The notes beneath the pieces are model-generated. The model saw only the letters and a program-made list of their open reading frames with translations. It ran no database searches and was not told the origin of the DNA. DNA of 33,174 nucleotides from a virus (lineage: Duplodnaviria; Heunggongvirae; Uroviricota; Caudoviricetes), in the IMG/VR virus record IMGVR_UViG_2526164596_000016; one strand, 5' to 3'. Positions 3,238-33,174 of the stretch are shown here, piece after piece (positions within the stretch are counted from its first letter, which is position 1; every line of letters starts with the position of its first letter). The position numbers and the translations under genes were made by a program.

Positions 3238-3509
3238 GTATTCGTATTGAAATTGGCGAACGTTATGTCGTTACCAGTGACAGCTTTCAGTTTATTCTCC
3301 ACGAGAAAAAGAGAGCGGAAAGCGGTAAAAACGCCGGTCAGGAATGGCTGTCGGTGGTTGGTTATTACCCGAAATTAAGCCAGCTCGTTTCCGGCCTGAT
3401 GCATCACGATATTCTGACCGGAAGCGCAAAATCTTTTGCTGATTTAAACGCGCAGGTTGAGCAACTCAGCAAGCGTTGTTCAGAGGCTTTTGGCTCATAT
3501 GGCCGTTAA
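3234..3509 (+). CDS. Hypothetical early protein (91 aa)
   Basis: ORF in track, overlaps neighbours by a few nt; ends as gene A starts. Confidence 0.5.
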   Translation: MSIRIEIGERYVVTSDSFQFILHEKKRAESGKNAGQEWLSVVGYYPKLSQLVSGLMHHDILTGSAKSFADLNAQVEQLSKRCSEAFGSYGR

Positions 3510-5775
3510 AGCCTCCGGGCGTTTTGTCCCTCCGTCAGCATTTGCCGCAGGCACCGGTAAGACGTTTACCGGTGCTTATGCATGGAACGCGCCACGCGAG
3601 GCCGTCGGGCGCGAAAGACCCCTTACACGTGACGAGATGCGTCAGGTGCAAGGTGTTTTATCCACGATTAACCGCCTGCCTTACTTTTTGCGCTCGCTGT
3701 TTACTTCACGCTATGACTACATCCGGCGCAATAAAAGCCCGGTGCACGGGTTTTATTTTCTCACATCCACTTTTCAGCGTCGTTTATGGCCGCGCATTGA
3801 GCGTGTGAATCAGCGCCATGAAATGAACACCGACGCGTCGTTGCTGTTTCTGGCAGAGCGTGACCATTATGCGCGTCTGCCGGGGATGAATGACAAGGAG
3901 CTGAAAAAGTTTGCCGCCCGTATCTCATCGCAGCTTTTCATGATGTATGAGGAACTCTGCGATGCCTGGGTGGATGCGCATGGCGAAAAAGAATCGCTGT
4001 TTACGGATGAGGCGCAGGATCATCTGTATGGTCATGTTGCTGGCGCTGCACGTGCTTTCAATATTTCCCCGCTCTACTGGAAAAAATACCGTAAAGGACA
4101 GATAACCACGAGGCAGGCATATTCTGCCATTGCCCGTCTGTTTAACGATGAGTGGTGGACTCATCAGCTTAAAGGCCAGCGTATGCGCTGGCATGAGGCG
4201 TTACTGATTGCTGTCGGGGAGGTGAATAAAGACCGTTCTCCTTATGCCAGTAAACATGCCATTCGTGATGTACGTGCACGCCGCCAGGCAAATCTGGAAT
4301 TTCTTAAATCGTGTGACCTTGAAAACAGGGAAACCGGCGAGCGCATCGACCTTATCAGTAAGGTGATGGGCAGTATTTCTAATCCTGAAATTCGCCGGAT
4401 GGAGCTGATGAACACCATCGCCGGTATTGAGCGTTACGCCGCCGCAGAGGGTGATGTGGGGATGTTTATCACGCTGACCGCGCCGTCAAAGTATCATCCG
4501 ACACGTCAGGTCAGAAAAGGCGAAAGTAAAACCGTCCAGCTAAATCACGGCTGGAACGATGAGGCATTTAATCCAAAGGATGCGCAGCGTTATCTCTGCC
4601 GTATCTGGAGCCTGATGCGCACGGCATTCAAGGATAATGATTTACAGGTCTACGGGTTGCGAGTCGTCGAGCCACACCACGACGGAACGCCGCACTGGCA
4701 TATGATGCTTTTTTGTAATCCACGCCAGCGTAACCAGATTATCGAAATCATGCGTCGCTATGCGCTCAAAGAGGATGGCGACGAAAGAGGAGCCGCGCGA
4801 AACCGTTTTCAGGCGAAACACCTTAACCGGGGCGGTGCTGCGGGGTATATCGCGAAATACATCTCAAAAAATATCGACGGATATGCACTGGATGGTCAGC
4901 TCGATAATGATACCGGCAGACCGCTGAAAGACACTGCCGCGGCTGTTACCGCATGGGCGTCAACGTGGCGCATCCCGCAATTTAAAACGGTTGGTCTGCC
5001 GACAATGGGGGCTTACCGTGAACTACGCAAATTGCCTCGCGGCGTCAGCATTGCTCATGAGTTTGACGAGCGCGTCGAGGCTGCACGCGCCGCTGCAGAC
5101 AGTGGTGATTTTGCGTTGTATATCAGCGCGCAGGGCGGGGCAAATGTCCCGCGCGATTGTCAGACTGTCAGGGTCGCCCGTAGCCCGTCGGATGACGTTA
5201 ACGAGTACGAGGAAGAAGTCGAGAGAGTGGTCGGCATTTACGCGCCGCATCTCGGCGCGCGTCATATTCATATCACCAGAACGACGGACTGGCGCATTGT
5301 GCCGAAAGTTCCGGTCGTTGAGCCTTTGACTTTAAAAAGCGGCATCGCCGCGCCTCGGAGTCCTGTCAATAACTGTGGAAAGCTCACCGGTGGTGATACT
5401 TCGTTACCAGCTCCCACACCTTCTGAGCACGCCGCAGCAGTGCTTAATCTGGTTGATGACGGTGTCATCGAATGGAATGACCCGGAGGTCGTGAGGGCGC
5501 TCAGAGGTGCATTAAAACATGGCCTGAGAACACCAAATCGCCAGCAAAGAAACGGAAGCCCGTTAAAACCGCATGAAATGGCACCATCGGCCAGACTGAC
5601 CCGGTCGGAACGAATGCAAATTACCCGTATCCGCGTTGACCTTGCTCAGAACGGTATCAGGCCGCAGCGATGGGAGCTTGAGGCGCTGGCGCGTGGGGCA
5701 ACCGTAAATTATGACGGGAAAAAATTCACGTATCCGGTCGCTAATGAGTGGTCGGTTTTTTCAGTTAAACAATAA
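3499..5775 (+). CDS. A: Rolling-circle replication initiator/endonuclease, P2 gpA-like
   Basis: Start taken at MAVKASGRFVPP (ATG 3499). Contains HWHMMLF (HUH-type motif) and AAGYIAKYISK (active-site Tyr region); length and sequence match recalled P2 A. Confidence 0.9.
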   Translation: MAVKASGRFVPPSAFAAGTGKTFTGAYAWNAPREAVGRERPLTRDEMRQVQGVLSTINRLPYFLRSLFTSRYDYIRRNKSPVHGFYFLTSTFQRRLWPRIERVNQRHEMNTDASLLFLAERDHYARLPGMNDKELKKFAARISSQLFMMYEELCDAWVDAHGEKESLFTDEAQDHLYGHVAGAARAFNISPLYWKKYRKGQITTRQAYSAIARLFNDEWWTHQLKGQRMRWHEALLIAVGEVNKDRSPYASKHAIRDVRARRQANLEFLKSCDLENRETGERIDLISKVMGSISNPEIRRMELMNTIAGIERYAAAEGDVGMFITLTAPSKYHPTRQVRKGESKTVQLNHGWNDEAFNPKDAQRYLCRIWSLMRTAFKDNDLQVYGLRVVEPHHDGTPHWHMMLFCNPRQRNQIIEIMRRYALKEDGDERGAARNRFQAKHLNRGGAAGYIAKYISKNIDGYALDGQLDNDTGRPLKDTAAAVTAWASTWRIPQFKTVGLPTMGAYRELRKLPRGVSIAHEFDERVEAARAAADSGDFALYISAQGGANVPRDCQTVRVARSPSDDVNEYEEEVERVVGIYAPHLGARHIHITRTTDWRIVPKVPVVEPLTLKSGIAAPRSPVNNCGKLTGGDTSLPAPTPSEHAAAVLNLVDDGVIEWNDPEVVRALRGALKHGLRTPNRQQRNGSPLKPHEMAPSARLTRSERMQITRIRVDLAQNGIRPQRWELEALARGATVNYDGKKFTYPVANEWSVFSVKQ

Positions 5776-5827
5776 TGACTACTACTGCAGTGTTGTGGGA
5801 ATGTTATAGTGTTTGTGGGATTTTTCT

Positions 5828-5858
5828 ATGAAAAACAATGAATTAATCTGTTTTTCAT
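5828..5858. other. AT-rich hairpin: perfect 10-bp inverted repeat ATGAAAAACA / TGTTTTTCAT with 11-nt loop
   Basis: Read directly, between gene A stop and the methyltransferase promoter region; could act as a terminator or insulator at the cargo boundary. Confidence 0.3.
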
Positions 5859-5921
5859 ATTGAGCTAATTTTTTATGGCCACAGTTGTTAAAAAGTGAGA
5901 ACATAATCTTGTTCAAAACCT

Positions 5922-5951
5922 GCTTCTATATACGGAGGCTTTCGCTATAAT
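5922..5951 (+). promoter_or_regulatory. Candidate promoter for the methyltransferase: consensus -10 TATAAT at 5946-5951, poor -35
   Basis: Read directly; followed by strong SD AGGAGG (5966-5971) 5 nt before ATG 5977. Confidence 0.35.
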
Positions 5952-5976
5952 ACGCGGTCGGTTTTAGGAGGGGATA

Positions 5977-6921
5977 ATGCCAACAGTAGTTTCACTTTTT
6001 TCTGGATGCGGTGGTTCCGATGCGGGGGTTTTGAGAGCCGGCTTTGATGTGCTTATGGCCAACGATATCTTGCCGTATGCGCGCGATGTTTATATTGCCA
6101 ATCATCCAGAAACTGATTACATATTAGGCAATATTGCTGATGTAACTACTTTTCCTAAATCTGATTTGCTGGTAGGTTGTTATCCATGTCAGGGATTCAG
6201 CCAGGGTGGTGCGCGTAAAGCCGATCGAAAAATTAATACTCTTTATTTAGAGTTTGCTAGAGCTTTAAACAATATAAAGCCTAAAGCTTTTATAGTAGAA
6301 AACGTGTCTGGTATGGTTAGAAAAAATTTTGAGCATTTGTTATCTGACCAGATCAGGGTTTTTACTGAAGCAGGTTATACTGTTTCCGCAAAAGTTTTAA
6401 ATGCGGCTGAATATGGAGTAGCGCAGGAAAGAAAAAGAATATTTATCGTAGGAATCCGTAATGATTTCAAAGTTAAGTACGAGTTCCCTCAGCCAACTCA
6501 TGGGCCAGCAACTGGCGTCAACTATGTTACTATTAAAGATGCTATAGGGCATTTACCTGAATGGCCAGAAGGTGAATTTTATGATATGGGATTCCATTGG
6601 TATTATATGTCTCGCAATCGTCGCCAGGATTGGGATCAAATTTCAAAGACAATAGTTGCTAATGCAAGGCATATGCCGTTGCATCCTGTCAGTCCTCCGA
6701 TGGAGAAAGTAAGAACTGATGAATGGAGATTTGTTGAGGATCGGAGAGCTCGCAGATTCAGTTTTCGAGAGGCAGCACTATTACAAGGGTTTGAGGATCT
6801 AGTGTTTCCAGAAACAAATGCTGCAAGTCTTGGCATGAAATACACGGTGGTTGGTAATGCAGTGCCTCCGCCGCTTTTTGAAGCTGTAACGAAGGCATTG
6901 CCAATAGAATTATGGGATTGA
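5977..6921 (+). CDS. DNA (cytosine-5)-methyltransferase, Dcm-like
   Basis: 314-aa ORF with C5-MTase motifs in canonical order: FSGCGG (motif I, AdoMet), GCYPCQGFS (motif IV, catalytic Cys), ENV (VI), QERKRIFIVG (VIII), RRFSFREAALLQGF (IX), VGNAVPPPLF (X). Strong RBS. Confidence 0.85.
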   Translation: MPTVVSLFSGCGGSDAGVLRAGFDVLMANDILPYARDVYIANHPETDYILGNIADVTTFPKSDLLVGCYPCQGFSQGGARKADRKINTLYLEFARALNNIKPKAFIVENVSGMVRKNFEHLLSDQIRVFTEAGYTVSAKVLNAAEYGVAQERKRIFIVGIRNDFKVKYEFPQPTHGPATGVNYVTIKDAIGHLPEWPEGEFYDMGFHWYYMSRNRRQDWDQISKTIVANARHMPLHPVSPPMEKVRTDEWRFVEDRRARRFSFREAALLQGFEDLVFPETNAASLGMKYTVVGNAVPPPLFEAVTKALPIELWD

Positions 6922-6928
6922 TAAGCTA

Positions 6929-7924
6929 TTAAGGCTCTGGATTTAATGTATAAAGCTCTTCCTCAAATTCGCGAAACCAATCAGAGGTAGTTATCGCTTC
7001 CCATTGGTTTGCCTTATCAAGTAGATATATGATTCTCAACCTATCTAATAATAATACCCCAGCGGTTGCGTGTGTGCTTACCCATTCGCCATTTGCTTCC
7101 CGATAGAAAACAGGCGTGAACATTGTTGATGGATGCTGGAACGCAATTTGGAAATAGGTGGTCAGTTTTAACACGTTAGCCTCTAATGTTTTGCTTGGCC
7201 ACCCTGTTTCTTGTGCACCACATTGACCAAGAATTCCATAGTTGCTAGTTTGACCATCAGGAAATTCCACTGTAGCAATTAGGTCAAACCCGGCATCACC
7301 AGATGTGGGAGCTCTATTTATTTCCCTTGTGTTTAAACTACAAACTCCAAGATCTTTTCCTAAAGTTTGTAGAGCTGTCCGAAGATTTGTTCCATAATAA
7401 TTTTGCCTATCATCGGAGTTAGCATCAAAAATTCTTACGGTGCCATGTGCAGGTAAGAGAGAAATCATTGCTACTTTACATACTCTGGCAAAGCTCTTTG
7501 CCCAACGTTGTGCTGCTCCTTTAATCGACTTAAAGGATCTAAGTCTAGAGCAGCAAAGAAGAAAAACATATATTCGTTGTTGTTGGTTTAGATTTTCTTT
7601 AATAATTATCTCATCACCTGAAATTATAAATGGATATATTTTGCCAAGAGCACTTTCTCTATATTCGAGTTGTGTCCAAACATCTTCGAGTTGCTCTTCA
7701 AAACGATCATTTCTCTCAGCGTCTCCATTAATTTCTTCTTCAGAATTACATTCTTCATCAATTTCTTCAACGCTTGTTATGCCGAATTTTCTTACTGAAT
7801 CTAAATCATTTTTATGTAGTGAGTTACGTCCGGTATAATTAATTACCGTGAGTAACTCGGCTAAATCTGCAAACAAATGAGGAGAGTTGGGATGCATAAC
7901 TCCTACTTCAAAAGTCATCATCAC
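6929..7924 (-). CDS. Hypothetical protein (331 aa) with acidic N-terminal region; candidate effector or nuclease partner
   Basis: ORF in track; GTG/ATG start cluster (GAGGTGATGATGACT) overlaps the upstream frame stop, suggesting translational coupling; converges on the MTase with a 7-bp gap. No motif recognised. Confidence 0.6.
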   Translation of the reverse strand: MMMTFEVGVMHPNSPHLFADLAELLTVINYTGRNSLHKNDLDSVRKFGITSVEEIDEECNSEEEINGDAERNDRFEEQLEDVWTQLEYRESALGKIYPFIISGDEIIIKENLNQQQRIYVFLLCCSRLRSFKSIKGAAQRWAKSFARVCKVAMISLLPAHGTVRIFDANSDDRQNYYGTNLRTALQTLGKDLGVCSLNTREINRAPTSGDAGFDLIATVEFPDGQTSNYGILGQCGAQETGWPSKTLEANVLKLTTYFQIAFQHPSTMFTPVFYREANGEWVSTHATAGVLLLDRLRIIYLLDKANQWEAITTSDWFREFEEELYTLNPEP

Positions 7925-8438
7925 CTCTGCTATTTTTCTCTGCTATTTCAGAACCTATAAGCTTAATATGTTTATTGATTCTTCGTGCTACTTCATGGGC
8001 CTGTCTATCATACTCTACCGTGGCAACCATGCCTGCTGCATCTATCAAAGCTGCTTCAACTTGATAAAGTAACTGGAGAAAGTCCTTAGTAATATCAGAT
8101 GTCAATTGATAGGCAACTGCGAGTGGAGCCCCCATTCGGAATTGCTCCAATGCCTTAGGGCTACTTACAACAGCAGCTAGTTCTCTTAAATTACGTGATT
8201 CTCCTACACGAGTTTTTTTATCCTCGCCTTTTTTATATAACCATTCAGTTAGTTCTTTTATTTCTTTGTTCTTTAAACTCTTAGAATTGATGATAGGATG
8301 ACTTGGTATTGTGTCTCCATCGTCTTCGATTGAAACTCCGACAAACTGGCCTAACCGCTCATCAGCAAGTGCTGTTGATAATACTGAAAATTTAATCGTT
8401 TCTTCATCTAGCTTTTCAATACCATAAAAATCATTTTT
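7908..8438 (-). CDS. Open frame continuing the ParB-like gene after a -1 shift (C-terminal extension or frameshifted fragment)
   Basis: Hand translation: the frame is open from stop TAA (8439-8441) down to 7908 but has no ATG/GTG/TTG before 8150; an extra A in the A7 run (plus-strand T7 at 8434-8440) would fuse it to the ParB-like ORF. Confidence 0.35.
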   Translation of the reverse strand, partial: KNDFYGIEKLDEETIKFSVLSTALADERLGQFVGVSIEDDGDTIPSHPIINSKSLKNKEIKELTEWLYKKGEDKKTRVGESRNLRELAAVVSSPKALEQFRMGAPLAVAYQLTSDITKDFLQLLYQVEAALIDAAGMVATVEYDRQAHEVARRINKHIKLIGSEIAEKNSRGDDDF

Positions 8439-9028
8439 TTAATGATTTCATACACCGCTAAAGCGTCTAGGTTACGCTTGATATGATCCCTACGACTGCC
8501 AATAGCTCTGGCAACCTCATAGTAGCGTAGCATTGGATCCAGATTTGCATTGGTATAATCAAAAAGCTGTTTAATATATCGAGCTTTTGATAAGGGTTCC
8601 CATTGTTTGACACCAGTAATATGTCTGAAACCAAGGTACGGAAGAATCTCTTCTCTTGTTTGGCGCTCAATGACAGGAACACGATCGACCGTATGTTTTG
8701 CATTTGATGCAATTTCTCGTAGTCGAGCACTTGGATTTTCACATAGTGTCGGATCGCGTAATAATTTGACCGCGGATAGGCGACGGTTTCCTTCAACTAC
8801 AATGTACTTCCCCGGCGCTCCACTATCAGGAATGACAATCAATGGTTCTCCAGGGAAAAAACCATTTTCCGCAATAGCACTCATTAGGTCTTCGATAGAT
8901 GTTGAGGTTGCTATGTAGTTAATCATTCCCAATTGGTCACGAGACACGCCTTCAGGAAGTCTTGGGTTTTCTGTGTCAAGTTCCAAATCATCTAGCGGAA
9001 CATAAAGTATTTCTGAATCAGCAATCAT
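8408..9028 (-). CDS. ParB/Srx-like nuclease-domain protein (N-terminal part)
   Basis: Start taken at MIADSEILYVPLDD (ATG 9028, SD GGAG 6 nt upstream). Contains LELDTENPR and YIVVEGNRRLSAVKLL, the hallmark GxRR arginine motif of the ParB N-terminal fold. Terminates just after an A7 run. Confidence 0.7.
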   Translation of the reverse strand: MIADSEILYVPLDDLELDTENPRLPEGVSRDQLGMINYIATSTSIEDLMSAIAENGFFPGEPLIVIPDSGAPGKYIVVEGNRRLSAVKLLRDPTLCENPSARLREIASNAKHTVDRVPVIERQTREEILPYLGFRHITGVKQWEPLSKARYIKQLFDYTNANLDPMLRYYEVARAIGSRRDHIKRNLDALAVYEIIKKMIFMVLKS

Positions 9029-9075
9029 CTGGATCTCCGTTGAACATGTCCACGAGAAGGAGCACAAAGTTATTT

Positions 9076-9104
9076 CATAACATGCAATATACTCATTCTG
9101 TAGC
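9076..9104 (-). promoter_or_regulatory. Candidate sigma70 promoter for the leftward cargo operon: -35 TTCATT (plus 9099-9104), 17-bp spacer, -10 TATATT (plus 9076-9081)
   Basis: Read directly on the minus strand, about 50 nt upstream of the ParB-like start. Confidence 0.35.
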
Positions 9105-9254
9105 CATAAATGAATTATTCATGATGTAAGATTCGCGTTGATGTGCGTGAATTCGCAAGTAATTATACAGCAAGGTTTGATTGGGTATCGTCAGCACCAG
9201 TGCGGTTCCAACGTACTCATGCAACTGCATTAAAACCGCCCCATGAAGTGGGCG

Positions 9255-9273
9255 GGCGAGGCGGGGAAAGCAC
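9255..9273. other. cos cohesive-end sequence GGCGAGGCGGGGAAAGCAC
   Basis: 19-mer read directly; matches the P2/186/P4 cohesive end as I recall it, at the expected position upstream of Q. Confidence 0.6.
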
Positions 9274-9442: not shown

Positions 9443-10477
9443 TCAGCCGTTGTCAGTGTCCAGTGAGTAGTTTTTAAAGCGGATGACCTCCTGACCGAGC
9501 CAGCCGTTTATTTCCCGAATCCTGTCCTGTAACGGGATAAGCTCATTGCGGACAAAGACCTTTGCCACTTTCTCAATATCACCCAGCGACCCGACGTTCT
9601 CCGGCTTGCCGCCCATCAACTGAAAGGGGATGCGGTGCGCGTCCAGCAGGTCAGCGGCGCTGGCTTTTTTGATATTAAAAAAATCGTCTTTCGTCGCCAC
9701 TTCACTGAGCGGGATAATTTTAATGCCGTCAGCTTTCCCCTGCGGGGCATAGAGAAACAGATTTTTAAAGTTATTGCGGCCTTTCGACTTAACCATGTTT
9801 TCGCGAAGCATTTCGATATCGTTGCGATCCTGCACGGCATCAGTGACGTACATGATGTATCCGGCATGTGCGCCGTTTTCGTAATACTTGCGGCGGAACA
9901 GCGTGGCCGACTCATTCAGCCAGGCAGAATTAAGGGCGCTGAGATATTCCGGCAGGCCGTACAGCTCCTGATTAATATCCGGCTCCAGCAGGTGAAACAC
10001 GGAGCCGGGCGTGAAAGGTGTCGGCTCGTTGAAGGACGGCACCCACCAGTAAACATCCTCTTCCACACCACGGCGGGTATATTTTGCCGGTGAGGTTTCC
10101 AGTCTGATGACCTTACCGGTGGTGCTGTAACGCTTTTCCAGAAACGCATTACCGAACACCAGAAAATCCAGCACAAAGCGGCTGAAATCCTGCTGGGAAA
10201 GCCACGGATGCGGGATAAATGTCGAGGCCAGAATATTACGTTTGACGTAAATCGGTGAGCTGTGATGCACGGCAGCACGCAGGCTTTTTGCCAGACCGGT
10301 AAAGCTGATCGGTGGCTCATACCATCTGCCGTTACTGATGCACTCGACGTAATCCAGAATGTCACGGCGGTCGAGTACCGGCACCGGCTCACCAAAGGTG
10401 AATGCTTCCATTTTCGGGGCGCTGGCGGTCATTGTTTTTGCCGCAGGTTGCGGTGTTTTCCCTTTTTTCTTGCTCAT
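9443..10477 (-). CDS. Q: Portal protein, P2 gpQ-like
   Basis: 344-aa ORF; N-terminus MSKKKGKTPQPAAKTMTASAPKMEAFTFGEP and length match recalled P2 Q; first gene leftward from cos. Confidence 0.9.
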   Translation of the reverse strand: MSKKKGKTPQPAAKTMTASAPKMEAFTFGEPVPVLDRRDILDYVECISNGRWYEPPISFTGLAKSLRAAVHHSSPIYVKRNILASTFIPHPWLSQQDFSRFVLDFLVFGNAFLEKRYSTTGKVIRLETSPAKYTRRGVEEDVYWWVPSFNEPTPFTPGSVFHLLEPDINQELYGLPEYLSALNSAWLNESATLFRRKYYENGAHAGYIMYVTDAVQDRNDIEMLRENMVKSKGRNNFKNLFLYAPQGKADGIKIIPLSEVATKDDFFNIKKASAADLLDAHRIPFQLMGGKPENVGSLGDIEKVAKVFVRNELIPLQDRIREINGWLGQEVIRFKNYSLDTDNG

Positions 10478-23347: not shown

Positions 23348-23940
23348 TGAAACCTGTTTTTGATGAAAATGGGCTGACTACAGTGCCGGGTGATATGCGT
23401 TGTTTTTATTATGATGCAGTAACGTCTGAATATTCGGGCTGGTCTGATGAATATATTAATACTGGCGTAAGTATGCCCGCCTGTTCCACTGGTATTGACC
23501 CGGGCGAATACATTCCGGGGAAAGTGGCAGTATTTACGGGTAAGGGATGGAGCCATGAAGAAGACCACCGCAATGAGACTGTTTACTCAATCGAAAATGG
23601 CGTAGCTGTTACAGTGGATTATATCGGTGCCATCAAAGACGGTTATGTCACGCTTTCACCGTTAACGCCATACGATAAATGGGATGGTGAGAAATGGGTG
23701 ACAGATACTGAGGCACAGCATAGTGCCGCACTAGACGCGGCAGAAGCACAGCGCCAGTCGCTGATTGATGCTGCAATGGCTTCCATCAGTCTGATTCAAC
23801 TGAAATTACAGGCCGGGCGGAAGCTGACGCAGGCAGAAACAACCCGACTTAACGCCGTGCTGGATTATATTGACGCGGTGACGGTAACAGATACCAGCAC
23901 TGCGCCGGATGTCATCTGGCCTGAACTGCCGAAGGCGTAG
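23347..23940 (+). CDS. G: Tail fibre assembly chaperone G (expressed orientation)
   Basis: 197-aa ORF immediately after H with a conserved Tfa-type C-terminus (...DTSTAPDVIWPELPKA). Confidence 0.8.
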   Translation: MKPVFDENGLTTVPGDMRCFYYDAVTSEYSGWSDEYINTGVSMPACSTGIDPGEYIPGKVAVFTGKGWSHEEDHRNETVYSIENGVAVTVDYIGAIKDGYVTLSPLTPYDKWDGEKWVTDTEAQHSAALDAAEAQRQSLIDAAMASISLIQLKLQAGRKLTQAETTRLNAVLDYIDAVTVTDTSTAPDVIWPELPKA

Positions 23941-24352
23941 GCCATTCAATATCTGGCGCACCGGAAGTATCGACCAGTTCCAGTGTGTCCAGATAATCCA
24001 GCCACAAATTATATTGCGCCAGTTCCTCACCTTTCAGGCGACCAATCGCCGCTTTACCAGGCCATTGCTTACTGTTTATGTATTCGTTGACCTGATTAAT
24101 CAATTGCTGCTTTTCCAGTTCGGCTGCGGCAATTTGTTCCTCATGAGTTGGCGGTGGAATATCAATCCATGCAGGCATTCCGTCGATGACACCTCTGTAT
24201 TTTCCTTCTGGTGCTTCCTTCATAAATTCGGCGGCAACAGTGTCGTCAATTTCGATTCCATCATCGGGCCATTCGCCGGATTCCTGATAAGCGATTTTAA
24301 GCTCCACAGGGAAAAACGCATTTTTATCGGCACTGAAAATATATTTCTGCAT
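23912..24352 (-). CDS. Alternative tail fibre assembly chaperone (silent inverted copy)
   Basis: 146-aa minus-strand ORF with the same Tfa-type C-terminus (...DTSGAPDIEWPTPSAVQAR), converging on G. Confidence 0.75.
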   Translation of the reverse strand: MQKYIFSADKNAFFPVELKIAYQESGEWPDDGIEIDDTVAAEFMKEAPEGKYRGVIDGMPAWIDIPPPTHEEQIAAAELEKQQLINQVNEYINSKQWPGKAAIGRLKGEELAQYNLWLDYLDTLELVDTSGAPDIEWPTPSAVQAR

Positions 24353-24354
24353 TT

Positions 24355-24711
24355 CTACCGTCCTATCGAAATATAACTGAATCTGTATTGCTGTGAGATA
24401 TCACTGGTTGCCACACGCCACGCTGAATTACTGATATGTTCAAAATTTACAGACAAAACCTGCGGGGCAGGATTCGACGGGTCTGACTGAACGGCATCAG
24501 ACATAACACTGACTGAAACCATCGGCCGATTAGGGAATGGTATAGGGAAATGTCCACTGATAAAGCGGGTCGTGTTTCCTGAAAAAGTGCCAAACTGAAC
24601 AATATATCCACCTGGTAGCCTGAACCATCCCGAACCAGAAGCGAATGCTCCCATATCCGGTATCTGATTATCTCCTGTGCCCACATCCCTTTTCGCCGCT
24701 TCTCCCAAACC
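24355..24711 (-). CDS. Alternative tail fibre C-terminal cassette (promoterless; would fuse to H after inversion)
   Basis: Minus-strand frame begins ...VGLGEAAKRD..., sharing the GLGE junction with H; the crossover dinucleotide sits at codon positions 2-3 in both copies, so inversion keeps the frame. Confidence 0.7.
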   Translation of the reverse strand, partial: GLGEAAKRDVGTGDNQIPDMGAFASGSGWFRLPGGYIVQFGTFSGNTTRFISGHFPIPFPNRPMVSVSVMSDAVQSDPSNPAPQVLSVNFEHISNSAWRVATSDISQQYRFSYISIGR

Positions 24712-24725
24712 AACGTTTATGAAAA
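24700..24725. repeat. hix/gix-like inversion site (right), read on the minus strand as TTTTCATAAACG TT GGTTTGGGAGAA
   Basis: Read directly; right half identical to the left site, left half close to the hix half-site as recalled. Confidence 0.6.
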
Positions 24726-24780
24726 TGCAGAGATAACGGCTAACTGGCATCATCTCCGGTTTTTATTCAGGGGGATGATC

Positions 24781-25374
24781 ATGCTTATTGGCTATGTACG
24801 CGTGTCAACAAATGACCAGAACACGGAATTGCAGAGTAATGCGCTGGAGTGTGCAGGATGTGAGCTGATTTTTGAGGATAAAATCAGCGGCTCGAAGTCC
24901 GACAGGCCGGGGCTGAAAAAACTGCTCAGGACACTATCGGCAGGAGACACGTTGGTTGTCTGGAAGCTGGACAGACTGGGGCGCAGTATGCGGCATCTCG
25001 TTACGCTGATAGAAGAGTTGCGCCAGCGTGGTGTGAATTTCAGAAGCCTGACTGACAGTATTGATACCAGTACCCCAATGGGCCGTTTCTTTTTTCATGT
25101 CATGGGTGCCCTGGCTGAAATGGAGCGAGAACTCATTGTCGAGCGGACACGCGCAGGACTGGAAGCGGCCAGAGCCAAAGGTCGTATTGGTGGCAGACGA
25201 CCGAAACTCACCGCGAGAGAGTGGGAGCAGGCAGGACGGTTGCTGGCTGCGGGGGAATCTCGTCAACGTGTGGCGCTGATTTTTGATATTGGCCTGTCCA
25301 CGCTCTATAAAAAATTCCCCTCATCAGCGACAAAGAATAAATTGTGTCATCCCTTAGCCAACCGGGACAAATAG
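24781..25374 (+). CDS. Serine DNA invertase, Hin/Gin/Pin/Cin family
   Basis: MLIGYVRVSTNDQNTELQ...DTLVVWKLDRLGRS...GRFFFHVMGALAEMERELIVERT...GRIGGRRPKLT: the serine recombinase catalytic core and C-terminal HTH, strongly resembling Gin as recalled. Confidence 0.9.
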   Translation: MLIGYVRVSTNDQNTELQSNALECAGCELIFEDKISGSKSDRPGLKKLLRTLSAGDTLVVWKLDRLGRSMRHLVTLIEELRQRGVNFRSLTDSIDTSTPMGRFFFHVMGALAEMERELIVERTRAGLEAARAKGRIGGRRPKLTAREWEQAGRLLAAGESRQRVALIFDIGLSTLYKKFPSSATKNKLCHPLANRDK

Positions 25375-25433: not shown

Positions 25434-26624
25434 ATGAGTGACTATCATCACGGCGTGCAGGTGCTGGAGATTAACGACGGCACCCGCGTCATTTCCACCG
25501 TATCCACTGCCATTGTCGGCATGGTCTGCACGGCCAGCGATGCGGATGCGGAAATCTTCCCCCTCAATAAACCGGTGCTGATCACCAATGTGCAGAGCGC
25601 GATTGCAAAGGCCGGTAAAAAAGGCACGCTGGCGGCATCGTTGCAGGCCATCGCTGACCAGTCAAAACCGGTCACCGTTGTCGTGCGCGTGGAAGACGGC
25701 ACCGGCGACGACGAAGAAACGAAACTCGCGCAGACCGTTTCCAATATCATCGGCACCACTGACGAAAACGGTCAGTACACCGGACTGAAAGCCCTGCTGG
25801 CGGCGGAGTCGGTTACCGGTGTTAAACCGCGTATTCTCGGTGTGCCGGGACTGGACACCAAAGAGGTGGCGGTTGCACTGGCATCAGTCTGTCAGAAGCT
25901 GCGCGCTTTCGGGTATATCAGCGCATGGGGCTGTAAAACCATTTCCGAGGTGAAAGCCTACCGCCAGAATTTCAGCCAGCGTGAGCTGATGGTCATCTGG
26001 CCGGATTTCCTCGCATGGGATACGGTCGCCAGTACCACCGCCACCGCGTATGCCACCGCCCGTGCGCTGGGCCTGCGCGCTAAAATCGACCAGGAGCAGG
26101 GCTGGCATAAAACGCTGTCCAACGTCGGGGTAAACGGTGTTACCGGCATCAGTGCCTCTGTATTCTGGGATTTGCAGGAGTCCGGCACCGATGCTGACCT
26201 GTTGAACGAGTCAGGTGTCACAACGCTGATTCGCCGTGACGGTTTCCGATTCTGGGGTAACCGTACCTGCTCTGATGACCCGCTGTTCCTCTTTGAAAAC
26301 TACACCCGCACCGCGCAGGTGCTGGCCGACACGATGGCTGAGGCGCACATGTGGGCGGTGGACAAGCCCATCACCGCAACGCTGATTCGCGACATCGTTG
26401 ACGGCATCAATGCCAAATTTCGTGAGCTGAAAACAAACGGCTATATCGTGGATGCGACCTGCTGGTTCAGCGAAGAATCCAACGATGCGGAAACCCTTAA
26501 GGCCGGAAAACTGTATATCGACTACGACTATACCCCGGTTCCTCCTCTTGAAAACCTGACCCTGCGCCAGCGTATTACCGATAAATACCTGGCAAATCTG
26601 GTCACCTCGGTTAACAGCAATTAA
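25434..26624 (+). CDS. FI: Tail sheath protein FI
   Basis: 396-aa ORF; size and position as in P2. Confidence 0.9.
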   Translation: MSDYHHGVQVLEINDGTRVISTVSTAIVGMVCTASDADAEIFPLNKPVLITNVQSAIAKAGKKGTLAASLQAIADQSKPVTVVVRVEDGTGDDEETKLAQTVSNIIGTTDENGQYTGLKALLAAESVTGVKPRILGVPGLDTKEVAVALASVCQKLRAFGYISAWGCKTISEVKAYRQNFSQRELMVIWPDFLAWDTVASTTATAYATARALGLRAKIDQEQGWHKTLSNVGVNGVTGISASVFWDLQESGTDADLLNESGVTTLIRRDGFRFWGNRTCSDDPLFLFENYTRTAQVLADTMAEAHMWAVDKPITATLIRDIVDGINAKFRELKTNGYIVDATCWFSEESNDAETLKAGKLYIDYDYTPVPPLENLTLRQRITDKYLANLVTSVNSN

Positions 26625-32189: not shown

Positions 32190-32271
32190 TATCCTCAATT
32201 TGCCTGCTGCTTAATGCATTGCAGATGATTTGCTTCCGTTATACTAGCGTCAGTTGATAGCGGGAGTATTT

Positions 32272-33174
32272 ATGAATCAATCTTATGGACGGCTGGTCAG
32301 TCGGGCGGCGATTGCTGCGACGGCGATGGCTTCGTTGCTATTGCTGATTAAAATTTTTGCATGGTGGTATACCGGGTCGGTGAGTATTCTCGCCGCGCTG
32401 GTGGATTCGCTGGTGGATATCGGCGCGTCGTTGACGAATTTACTGGTGGTGCGATATTCCCTGCAACCTGCCGACGATAATCACTCGTTTGGTCACGGTA
32501 AAGCAGAGTCCCTCGCGGCGCTGGCGCAAAGTATGTTTATCTCCGGTTCGGCACTATTCCTGTTTTTGACGGGTATTCAACATCTGATATCTCCAACACC
32601 GATGACAGATCCAGGCGTCGGGGTTATCGTGACAATTGTGGCGCTAATTTGTACGATTATCCTTGTCTCGTTTCAGCGTTGGGTGGTGCGCCGGACGCAA
32701 AGCCAGGCGGTGCGGGCTGATATGCTACATTACCAGTCTGATGTTATGATGAACGGCGCAATTCTGCTGGCGCTGGGGTTGTCCTGGTACGGCTGGCATC
32801 GCGCCGATGCTCTGTTTGCATTGGGAATCGGCATCTATATTTTATATAGCGCGTTACGCATGGGATATGAGGCGGTACAGTCATTACTGGATCGCGCATT
32901 GCCTGATGAGGAACGGCAAGAAATTATTGATATCGTGACTTCCTGGCCGGGTGTTAGCGGCGCTCACGATCTTCGCACGCGGCAGTCAGGGCCGACCCGC
33001 TTTATTCAGATTCATTTGGAAATGGAAGACTCTCTGCCTTTGGTTCAGGCACATATGGTGGCGGATCAGGTAGAGCAGGCTATTTTACGGCGTTTTCCGG
33101 GATCGGATGTAATTATCCATCAGGACCCCTGTTCCGTCGTACCCAGGGAGGGTAAACGGTCTATGCTTTCATAA
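32272..33174 (+). CDS. fieF: Cation-diffusion-facilitator ferrous iron/zinc efflux transporter FieF (YiiP), host chromosomal gene
   Basis: ORF 32254-33174; start taken at [27 protein letters not shown] giving 300 aa; matches E. coli FieF as recalled, with CDF transmembrane organisation. Confidence 0.9.

Follow-up and report, generated by a model that had tools for sequence, protein, structure and literature searches.

Analysis of a 33,174-nt stretch of viral DNA (hereafter the window), which derives from a P2-like (Peduovirus) prophage and for the greater part of its length shares 98% identity with Yersinia phage HQ103, points to a three-gene cassette in the low-GC block at positions 5776..9254, between replication gene A and the cos site. 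The cassette encodes a C5 cytosine DNA methyltransferase (MTase), a ParB-like protein and a partner protein with a putative nuclease domain. We consider the odds slightly in favour of the block being a multi-subunit, restriction-modification (R-M)-like anti-phage cassette related to the defence system PD-λ-5. Its gene content would best be explained as a sister design to that system, in which the ParB front end is the same, a separate restriction endonuclease (REase)-like effector stands in for a fused HEPN domain, and a C5 enzyme replaces a Dam-like methylase. The basis for this reading is an intact C5 methylase, a ParB-fold protein with homology to a validated defence protein, a partner that co-evolves with it, near-obligate linkage of the genes, and their mobile and defence-associated contexts.

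The block is set apart from the phage backbone by its base composition, with a GC content of 0.35-0.44 (positions 5600-9200) against 0.52-0.59 in both flanks. Its right boundary is an exact match (9255..9273, + strand) to the 19-nt cohesive-end (cos) sequence of P2, GGCGAGGCGGGGAAAGCAC, for which the chance expectation is 0 matches. An earlier reading of this DNA from its letters alone (the sequence-only reading) had described an AT-rich block that replaces the backbone between the end of gene A and cos, and both measures bear this out. The slot, framed by the gene A open reading frame (ORF; 3457-5775, + strand) and the portal gene (9443-10477, - strand), corresponds to the variable A-to-cos locus of P2, the tin/old position; the suggestion that it houses anti-phage systems agrees with the documented role of the P2 A-to-portal hotspot as a site of defence systems (PMC9519451). 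The 3.48-kb block is found at 99.9-100% identity both in HQ103 and in ~0.9% of complete E. coli genomes (48 of 5426), and every one of these copies occupies the slot between the replication endonuclease (gene A) and portal genes; in E. coli 15A the block lies at NZ_CP077477.1 2932733-2936212. Promoters of its own had likewise been ascribed to the block. A sigma-70 scan of the block gave this no support, with 8 sites against 9.2 expected from shuffled sequence; the start of the MTase gene is nonetheless preceded by a perfect TATAAT and a strong Shine-Dalgarno sequence, AGGAGG.

The MTase gene (5977..6921, + strand) is intact and encodes 314 aa with PCQ and ENV motifs. The product is a full-length C5 methylase that matches Pfam DNA_methylase (PF00145, 5.5e-65) and TIGR00675 dcm (1.4e-56), in agreement with the rightward Dcm-like C5 enzyme predicted by the sequence-only reading, and is also matched by the PADLOC DruM2/MTase_II models. 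Its closest solved structure is M.HaeIII (E 1.4e-48), the C5 methyltransferase of GGCC, to which it aligns from end to end, including the MSRNR segment of the target-recognition region; the two enzymes nevertheless belong to separate families, at an identity of roughly 40% as estimated from the alignment. GGCC is the second most depleted 4-bp palindrome in the whole window, at an observed-to-expected ratio (O/E) of 0.70. This depletion is weak, and site avoidance does not identify the MTase target. By far the most depleted 4-bp palindrome in the window is GATC, with 35 sites observed and 133 expected from trinucleotide frequencies (O/E 0.26). The MTase gene and the partner gene converge and lie 7 bp apart.

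The gene for the ParB-like protein, on the - strand, is divided between two frames in the window. Its 5' part (8408..9028) encodes residues 1-~197 of the intact 373 aa, followed by out-of-frame codons up to a TAG at 8410-8408, and its 3' part (7908..8433 or ~8440), in the other frame, holds the predicted helix-turn-helix (HTH)/middle and C-terminal helical regions. The latter translates to KNDFYGIEKLDEE…RGDDDF*, identical to residues ~199-373 of WP_000559725.1, and the end of the gene overlaps the start of the partner gene by 11 nt. A ParB/Srx nucleotide-binding domain is recognized in the 5' part (PADLOC PD-Lambda-5_A, 1.1e-28; TIGR00180 parB_part, 4.8e-8). The intact protein matches 25 PD-Lambda-5_A models of PADLOC, the best at 6e-29 with residues 9-282 on profile positions 7-277 of 440, and also the PADLOC candidate PDC-M38A (715 aa). 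An AlphaFold2 model of a family member with 91% identity, with a mean pLDDT of 86.5, was matched by Foldseek to ParB/KorB/Noc constructs comprising the N-domain and the HTH/DNA-binding domain (E 2e-6 to 1e-5, ~260 aligned columns). The matched span of this predicted structure covers a putative central HTH region, with target TM-scores of only ~0.35-0.56 and high rmsd, and the model ends in two long C-terminal helices. Among 20 homologues (57-86% identical), neither ENPR (box I-like) nor EGNRRL (with a box II-like GNRR) varies, and FRHITGVKQWEP and GESRN are invariant or nearly so. The C-terminal RRINKH was considered as a HEPN Rx4-6H motif and rejected, its His being variable across the same 20 homologues and Pfam giving no HEPN match.

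The partner protein, encoded on the - strand at 6929..7918/7924, comprises 329 aa when read from the ATG at 7918 (the RefSeq start) or 331 aa from a GTG at 7924. It has no match in Pfam, NCBIfam or PADLOC and belongs to PHROG 3984, 'unknown function'. A word-indexed search returned 273 family matches, and an exhaustive search 1175 representatives at 50% identity (E <= 1e-3). The best 150 of these 1175 are stand-alone proteins of ~310-365 aa with a few shorter fragments and none above ~365 aa, so that no ParB-partner fusion, which would have served as Rosetta-stone evidence, was seen among them; PDC-M38A matches the ParB protein only. Across phyla the family shares a core of S-G-D-g-G-l-D…(~18 residues)…Q-C-[G/A], followed by W..K, P271 and D-R-x-R, with D210, G212, D214, Q234, C235, P271, D294, R295 and R297 invariant. 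The SGDxGxD…QC motif is the signature of Mrr/MspJI-type nucleases, and the statement of the sequence-only reading that the 331-aa protein has no recognisable motifs is thereby overturned. Moreover, a profile of 23 diverse members gave a single match among PDB sequences, to MspJI (E 0.008), which falls on the catalytic segment SGDGGVDFIG…LGQAKC of that enzyme. Four weak, mutually independent signals agree with the invariant D…QC motif in pointing to a nuclease domain of the MspJI/Mrr type, and we conclude that the partner probably consists of an N-terminal part, modelled as helical/winged-helix, and a C-terminal Mrr/MspJI-type PD-(D/E)xK domain that lacks the canonical Lys. K245 is nearly invariant and lies within a low-confidence loop; this residue, or the ParB protein, may complete the D214/Q234 site. 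A relation to the HEPN family MAE_28990, whose description reads 'in operon with ParB nuclease and DNA methylase', found no support, since no HEPN match came up when 23 diverse members were scanned with Pfam at E <= 1.

PADLOC analysis, structure prediction with Foldseek and a survey of gene co-occurrence had all been suggested along with the sequence-only reading. PADLOC places the ParB protein with PD-Lambda-5_A and the MTase with DruM2/MTase_II and leaves the partner without a match, the structure comparison returns ParB/KorB/Noc for the ParB protein at E 2e-6, and the survey confirmed that the genes travel together. A scan of GTDB (one genome per species, with patterns from the partner family) returned 38 loci. 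In all 35 of those with enough upstream DNA a ParB homologue lies directly upstream of the partner, usually overlapping it, and these pair loci span Proteobacteria, Chloroflexota, Acidobacteriota, Bacteroidota, Actinobacteria and Campylobacterota. A C5 MTase was present within the fetched flanks in 25 of ~32 genomic loci. Among IMG/VR viral contigs, the full triad was found in 25/25 and 31/31 informative loci, which correspond to 52 distinct loci once overlap is removed, and C5 is the sole MTase class in all 52. The same cassette is carried by coliphage Wφ as orf98/orf96/mth (orf96 against the partner, hhalign probability 100%, E 7e-60), by phage vB_EcoM-12474III and, at a different genomic position, by Pseudomonas phage vB_PaeM-D14A.

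How closely the three genes are bound to each other was evident from their identities to the window copies in 75 loci (among L003-L103 of the GTDB and IMG/VR sets), which are not phylogenetically independent: ParB and partner vary together (r = 0.99); the MTase, by contrast, is uncoupled from this pair (r = 0.59) and is >=60% identical in 29 of the 37 loci whose ParB is <45% identical to that of the window. In many loci where identity to the window copies falls to ~34% for ParB and ~25% for the partner, that of the MTase is still 65-77%. The likely explanation is either recombination of a single methylase family with different ParB-partner lineages or a much faster evolution of the pair. The MTase gene is placed downstream and convergent in 64 cases, upstream and co-directional in 7, downstream and co-directional in 4 and upstream and divergent in 4, and since it is kept in four positions and orientations the linkage is likely functional rather than accidental. 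The pattern is that of a two-gene ParB-partner unit apparently tied in function to an exchangeable C5 methylase, and the comparative evidence supports the three genes as a conserved mobile cassette rather than a chance neighbourhood. Two loci illustrate other states of the module. In Yersinia phage L-413C, the same slot (L043 207-1199) contains a truncated ParB-like ORF, 62% identical over residues 9-303, with neither partner nor methylase, a decayed remnant of the cassette. In a Helicobacter cetorum metagenome-assembled genome (L025 1976-6877), the pair follows, with overlapping ends, a 1633-aa HerA/DUF87-type ATPase-domain protein, and no methylase is present there; this may represent a different system architecture built on the same ParB-partner pair.

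The frame break in the ParB gene of the window stems from a 1-nt deletion in a homopolymer at 8434..8440 (T7 on the + strand, A7 on the coding strand). The tract has 8 bases (T8/A8) in E. coli 15A and HQ103, the intact A8 gene encodes WP_000559725.1, and for 47 of the 48 block-carrying complete E. coli genomes an A8 tract is implied by the extent of the matches. The frameshift noticed by the sequence-only reading is therefore real in the given sequence. Its description of a leftward operon stands in that both genes are real, overlapping and adjacent wherever adjacency could be assessed; the ParB frame of this copy is, however, broken. As a consequence of the A7 allele, ParB is cut after ~197 native residues and translation of the partner is uncoupled. 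Should the allele be genuine, the products of the cassette would be limited to the methylase and perhaps the partner, and the prophage would in effect carry an orphan methylase. A third tract length occurs in public data, namely A9 in NCTC8623 (L070 2758-2766), where the ParB gene is split too, and in PHROGs the ParB protein is represented by separate families of N-terminal (aa 1-226) and C-terminal (aa 299-373) fragments. Either slippage or homopolymer sequencing errors may therefore recur at this tract; a designed phase-variation switch is unlikely, since the tract is not conserved in homologues. We hold it just short of an even chance that the deletion in this copy is an assembly or homopolymer sequencing error and that the module is intact in the source organism. 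Such an error would be in keeping with the missing base being the sole difference from E. coli 15A in 3479 nt, within an 8-nt homopolymer, and with the PacBio-era NCTC assembly showing the opposite error type at the same tract. Genuine loss is favoured by the PHROGs fragment families, which indicate that split versions recur in independent phage records, by the ParB remnant that alone is left in L-413C, and by the general observation that R-M systems commonly decay by losing the restriction arm and keeping the methylase.

In the R-M-like reading that we favour, the HaeIII-like C5 methyltransferase would mark host and prophage DNA as self, the ParB-like protein would act as a DNA-sensing, nucleotide-switch subunit that engages DNA without the mark, possibly as a clamp gated by nucleoside triphosphate (NTP), and the nuclease-like partner would be recruited or activated by ParB to cut the unmarked DNA. 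A bolder version of this scheme, which we regard as possible though doubtful, would make the cassette a distinct R-M class in which a ParB clamp loads on DNA without 5-methylcytosine (5mC), replaces both the helicase/translocase and the specificity subunit, and licenses a partner nuclease whose active site, without the QxK Lys, is incomplete alone. If so, the ParB front end would be a reusable defence sensor that has on two or more occasions been joined to different effectors (REase-like, HEPN) and methylases (C5, Dam-like). Several observations weigh against a working R-M-like system. The position of the QxK Lys is occupied by G, A or C in 25 of 26 aligned partner sequences, with K only in L022, and since the canonical Lys is missing the partner is possibly catalytically altered or inactive. 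ParB CTPases have an E-N pair in box III, where the protein studied here reads FRHITG, which renders its use of CTP uncertain. At least six genomic loci (L004, L009, L012, L016, L029 and L040) carry the pair with no DNA methylase within 3-8 kb, its neighbours including a Type I specificity subunit and an AAA ATPase, GmrSD upstream and Mrr downstream, or plain housekeeping genes; this is unexpected for a constitutive restriction enzyme, and a simple scheme in which the MTase protects against a constitutive nuclease does not fit. Barring a sequencing error at the deletion, the restriction arm of the present copy is probably inactive. Finally, literature searches by concept, by RefSeq and Wφ accessions and by PDC-M38 returned nothing on the cassette or its activity, within an incomplete coverage of papers. 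The proposal of the sequence-only reading that the MTase is the protection arm and the leftward operon the effector arm thus gains from the conserved linkage, the PD-Lambda-5_A homology and the nuclease-like partner, and is held back by the MTase-less loci and the frameshifted copy.

The same MTase-less loci, which imply that the pair is not constitutively lethal, would agree with an abortive infection (Abi) mechanism. ParB and partner would then form a latent toxin that, once triggered by phage, degrades DNA indiscriminately and kills the cell, and the methylase would be secondary or independent, serving for instance as a protective or epigenetic mark. We find this rather unlikely. It would agree with the framing of PD-λ-5 by its authors as RM+Abi and with the fast divergence of ParB and partner relative to the MTase, as expected of arms-race sensors; yet all 52 informative viral copies keep an MTase, and only of the C5 class, which speaks for a pair that reads the mark, and neither HEPN nor another typical Abi toxin domain was found, the RRINKH of the window not being conserved in the family. 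That the closest nuclease domains (MspJI, AspBHI and Mrr) all come from modification-dependent enzymes, and that one of the MTase-less copies lies between GmrSD and Mrr genes, might instead indicate a Type IV/IIM-like activity, in which partner and ParB attack foreign-modified DNA and the methylase is separate cargo, serving to shield phage DNA from restriction by the host or to change host gene expression. This appears improbable, considering that the partner shows no SRA-like reader domain, its N-terminal part modelling as helical/winged-helix, and that linkage to a C5 MTase is near-obligate and found in several gene orders, which is hard to account for between functionally unrelated genes and would be hazardous if 5mC DNA were the substrate of the pair. 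Equally improbable, in our view, is a role outside defence, namely a modification or regulatory module in which ParB is a DNA-loading activator or a partition/silencing factor and the REase-like protein a dead DNA binder. The missing catalytic Lys is compatible with this, as are the typical function of ParB-family proteins in partition or silencing and the phage ParB-like protein that activates a DNA dioxygenase (PMC13229309). It is at odds with the location of the cassette in a dispensable hotspot whose cargo is swapped among otherwise near-identical P2-like phages, with its occurrence at non-phage chromosomal sites and in defence-gene neighbourhoods, and with the invariant polar residues D214, Q234, K245, D294, R295 and R297, which resemble an active site that has been maintained.

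ParB/Srx domains are a repeated find in defence loci, where they have no clear role. With the cassette, the ParB module of PD-λ-5 becomes part of a second architecture, one that is much more widespread; comparison of the two points to ParB as the sensor, with effector and methylase as exchangeable parts. With 1175 clusters at 50% identity in at least six phyla, all 'hypothetical', the partner family may further benefit in its annotation from the Mrr/MspJI-like assignment. The carriers include P2-like prophages of pathogenic E. coli (O103, O111 and enterotoxigenic E. coli, ETEC) and a phage that infects Yersinia pestis. The module would add an extra 5mC methylome to its hosts and could also impede phage therapy or DNA transfer.

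Among the remaining features of the block, a 44-aa ORF (5782..5916, - strand) in the AT-rich region upstream of the MTase is annotated as a hypothetical protein in HQ103; it has no PHROG or family match and could be a small regulator or spurious. No RNA element in the block matched Rfam at E <= 0.1. Outside the block, the window starts with the integrase gene (1-1011, - strand) and ends with a host cation-efflux (fieF-like) gene at 32254-33174, and the prophage in E. coli 15A abuts cpxP (L001 1-39), which places the prophage site in the cpxP-fieF region. A Hin/Gin-type serine invertase with Resolvase and HTH_7 domains (24775-25374, + strand) lies next to an oppositely oriented alternative tail-fibre C-terminus (Gp53-like_C; 24355-24753, - strand), beside which lies a tail-fibre assembly gene (23912-24352, - strand). 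The segment 23912-25374, located between the tail-fibre genes and an ORF at 25434, looks like an invertible host-range segment and lies roughly at the position of the second (Z/fun) hotspot of P2.

The closest described relative of the cassette is PD-λ-5, a validated broad defence system from ECOR7 that consists of RCQ13837.1 and RCQ13838.1 (Vassallo et al. 2022; PMC9519451). Its authors list it as a two-gene 'ParB/HEPN, methyltransferase' system, call it a compacted prophage RM+Abi system and needed an mrr-deleted host for its cloning (PMC9519451). PD-λ-5 A is a protein of ~500 aa with a published HHpred ParBc match at residues 6-89 and a weak HEPN match near residues 390-500, and PD-λ-5 B is a Dam-like N6-adenine methylase (PF02086, MethyltransfD12) (PMC9519451); neither this publication nor other papers found describe the mechanism. 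Both systems are prophage-borne and combine a protein bearing an N-terminal ParB/Srx domain with a DNA methyltransferase. The ParB protein of the cassette is, however, shorter (373 aa) and devoid of a conserved Rx4-6H, its match to the 440-position PD-Lambda-5_A profile ends at position 277, and Pfam detects no HEPN in it. The methylase is of the C5 class (PF00145) instead of D12, and a third, translationally coupled REase-like gene is present. We therefore do not regard the cassette as PD-λ-5: two of the three sequence-level features that define that system are absent and the ParB front end alone is shared. For its part, PADLOC cannot call the system, because the partner is not covered by any of its models and the D12-class B component is missing. 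The claim of the sequence-only reading that the module was undescribed is upheld in that the cassette is unnamed and absent from the literature searched, and needs amending in that its ParB belongs to the PD-λ-5_A family and its genes appear in the Wφ record. In their main text on P2 hotspots, Rousset et al. (2022) make no mention of ParB or methylases, and a Pectobacteriaceae Tn-seq paper among those found concerns other R-M systems.

Like classical Type II R-M systems, the cassette links a methyltransferase genetically to an endonuclease-like gene, a linkage kept in the 75 loci. It was not accepted as such a pair, in line with the sequence-only reading, because the nuclease-like protein is always coupled to a ParB-like protein of nucleotide-binding fold and its catalytic motif is non-canonical, the Lys of QxK being absent. 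With the modification-dependent endonucleases MspJI, AspBHI and Mrr the partner shares the putative nuclease domain; it differs from them by the Gly/Ala in place of the QxK Lys, by showing no SRA-like reader domain, and by its obligate pairing with a ParB-like protein, usually together with a C5 MTase. LlaI and BsuMI are McrBC-like, multi-gene restriction complexes assembled from Type IV-like parts that target specific DNA sites rather than modified DNA, and what they would have in common with the cassette is the concept only, a DNA-binding module combined with an NTP-dependent module and a nuclease. LlaI/BsuMI-type systems pair with methylases. Their NTPase is, in contrast, an AAA+ motor of the McrB type with no ParB fold, and no sequence relationship to the cassette was found. 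The CTP-dependent clamps ParB, KorB and Noc resemble the cassette ParB in the predicted fold of the N-domain with a putative HTH and in the ENPR and GNRR motifs, from which it departs by its lack of a partition context, the FRHITG at box III and the two long C-terminal helices. A further parallel is offered by a phage ParB homologue that activates the 5mYOX thymine dioxygenase on double-stranded DNA (PMC13229309). That ParB has no obvious DNA-binding domain, and its partner modifies DNA and is no methylase-linked nuclease-like protein; nonetheless, as in the arrangement proposed here, a phage ParB homologue serves as the cognate partner that enables an enzyme acting on DNA (PMC13229309).

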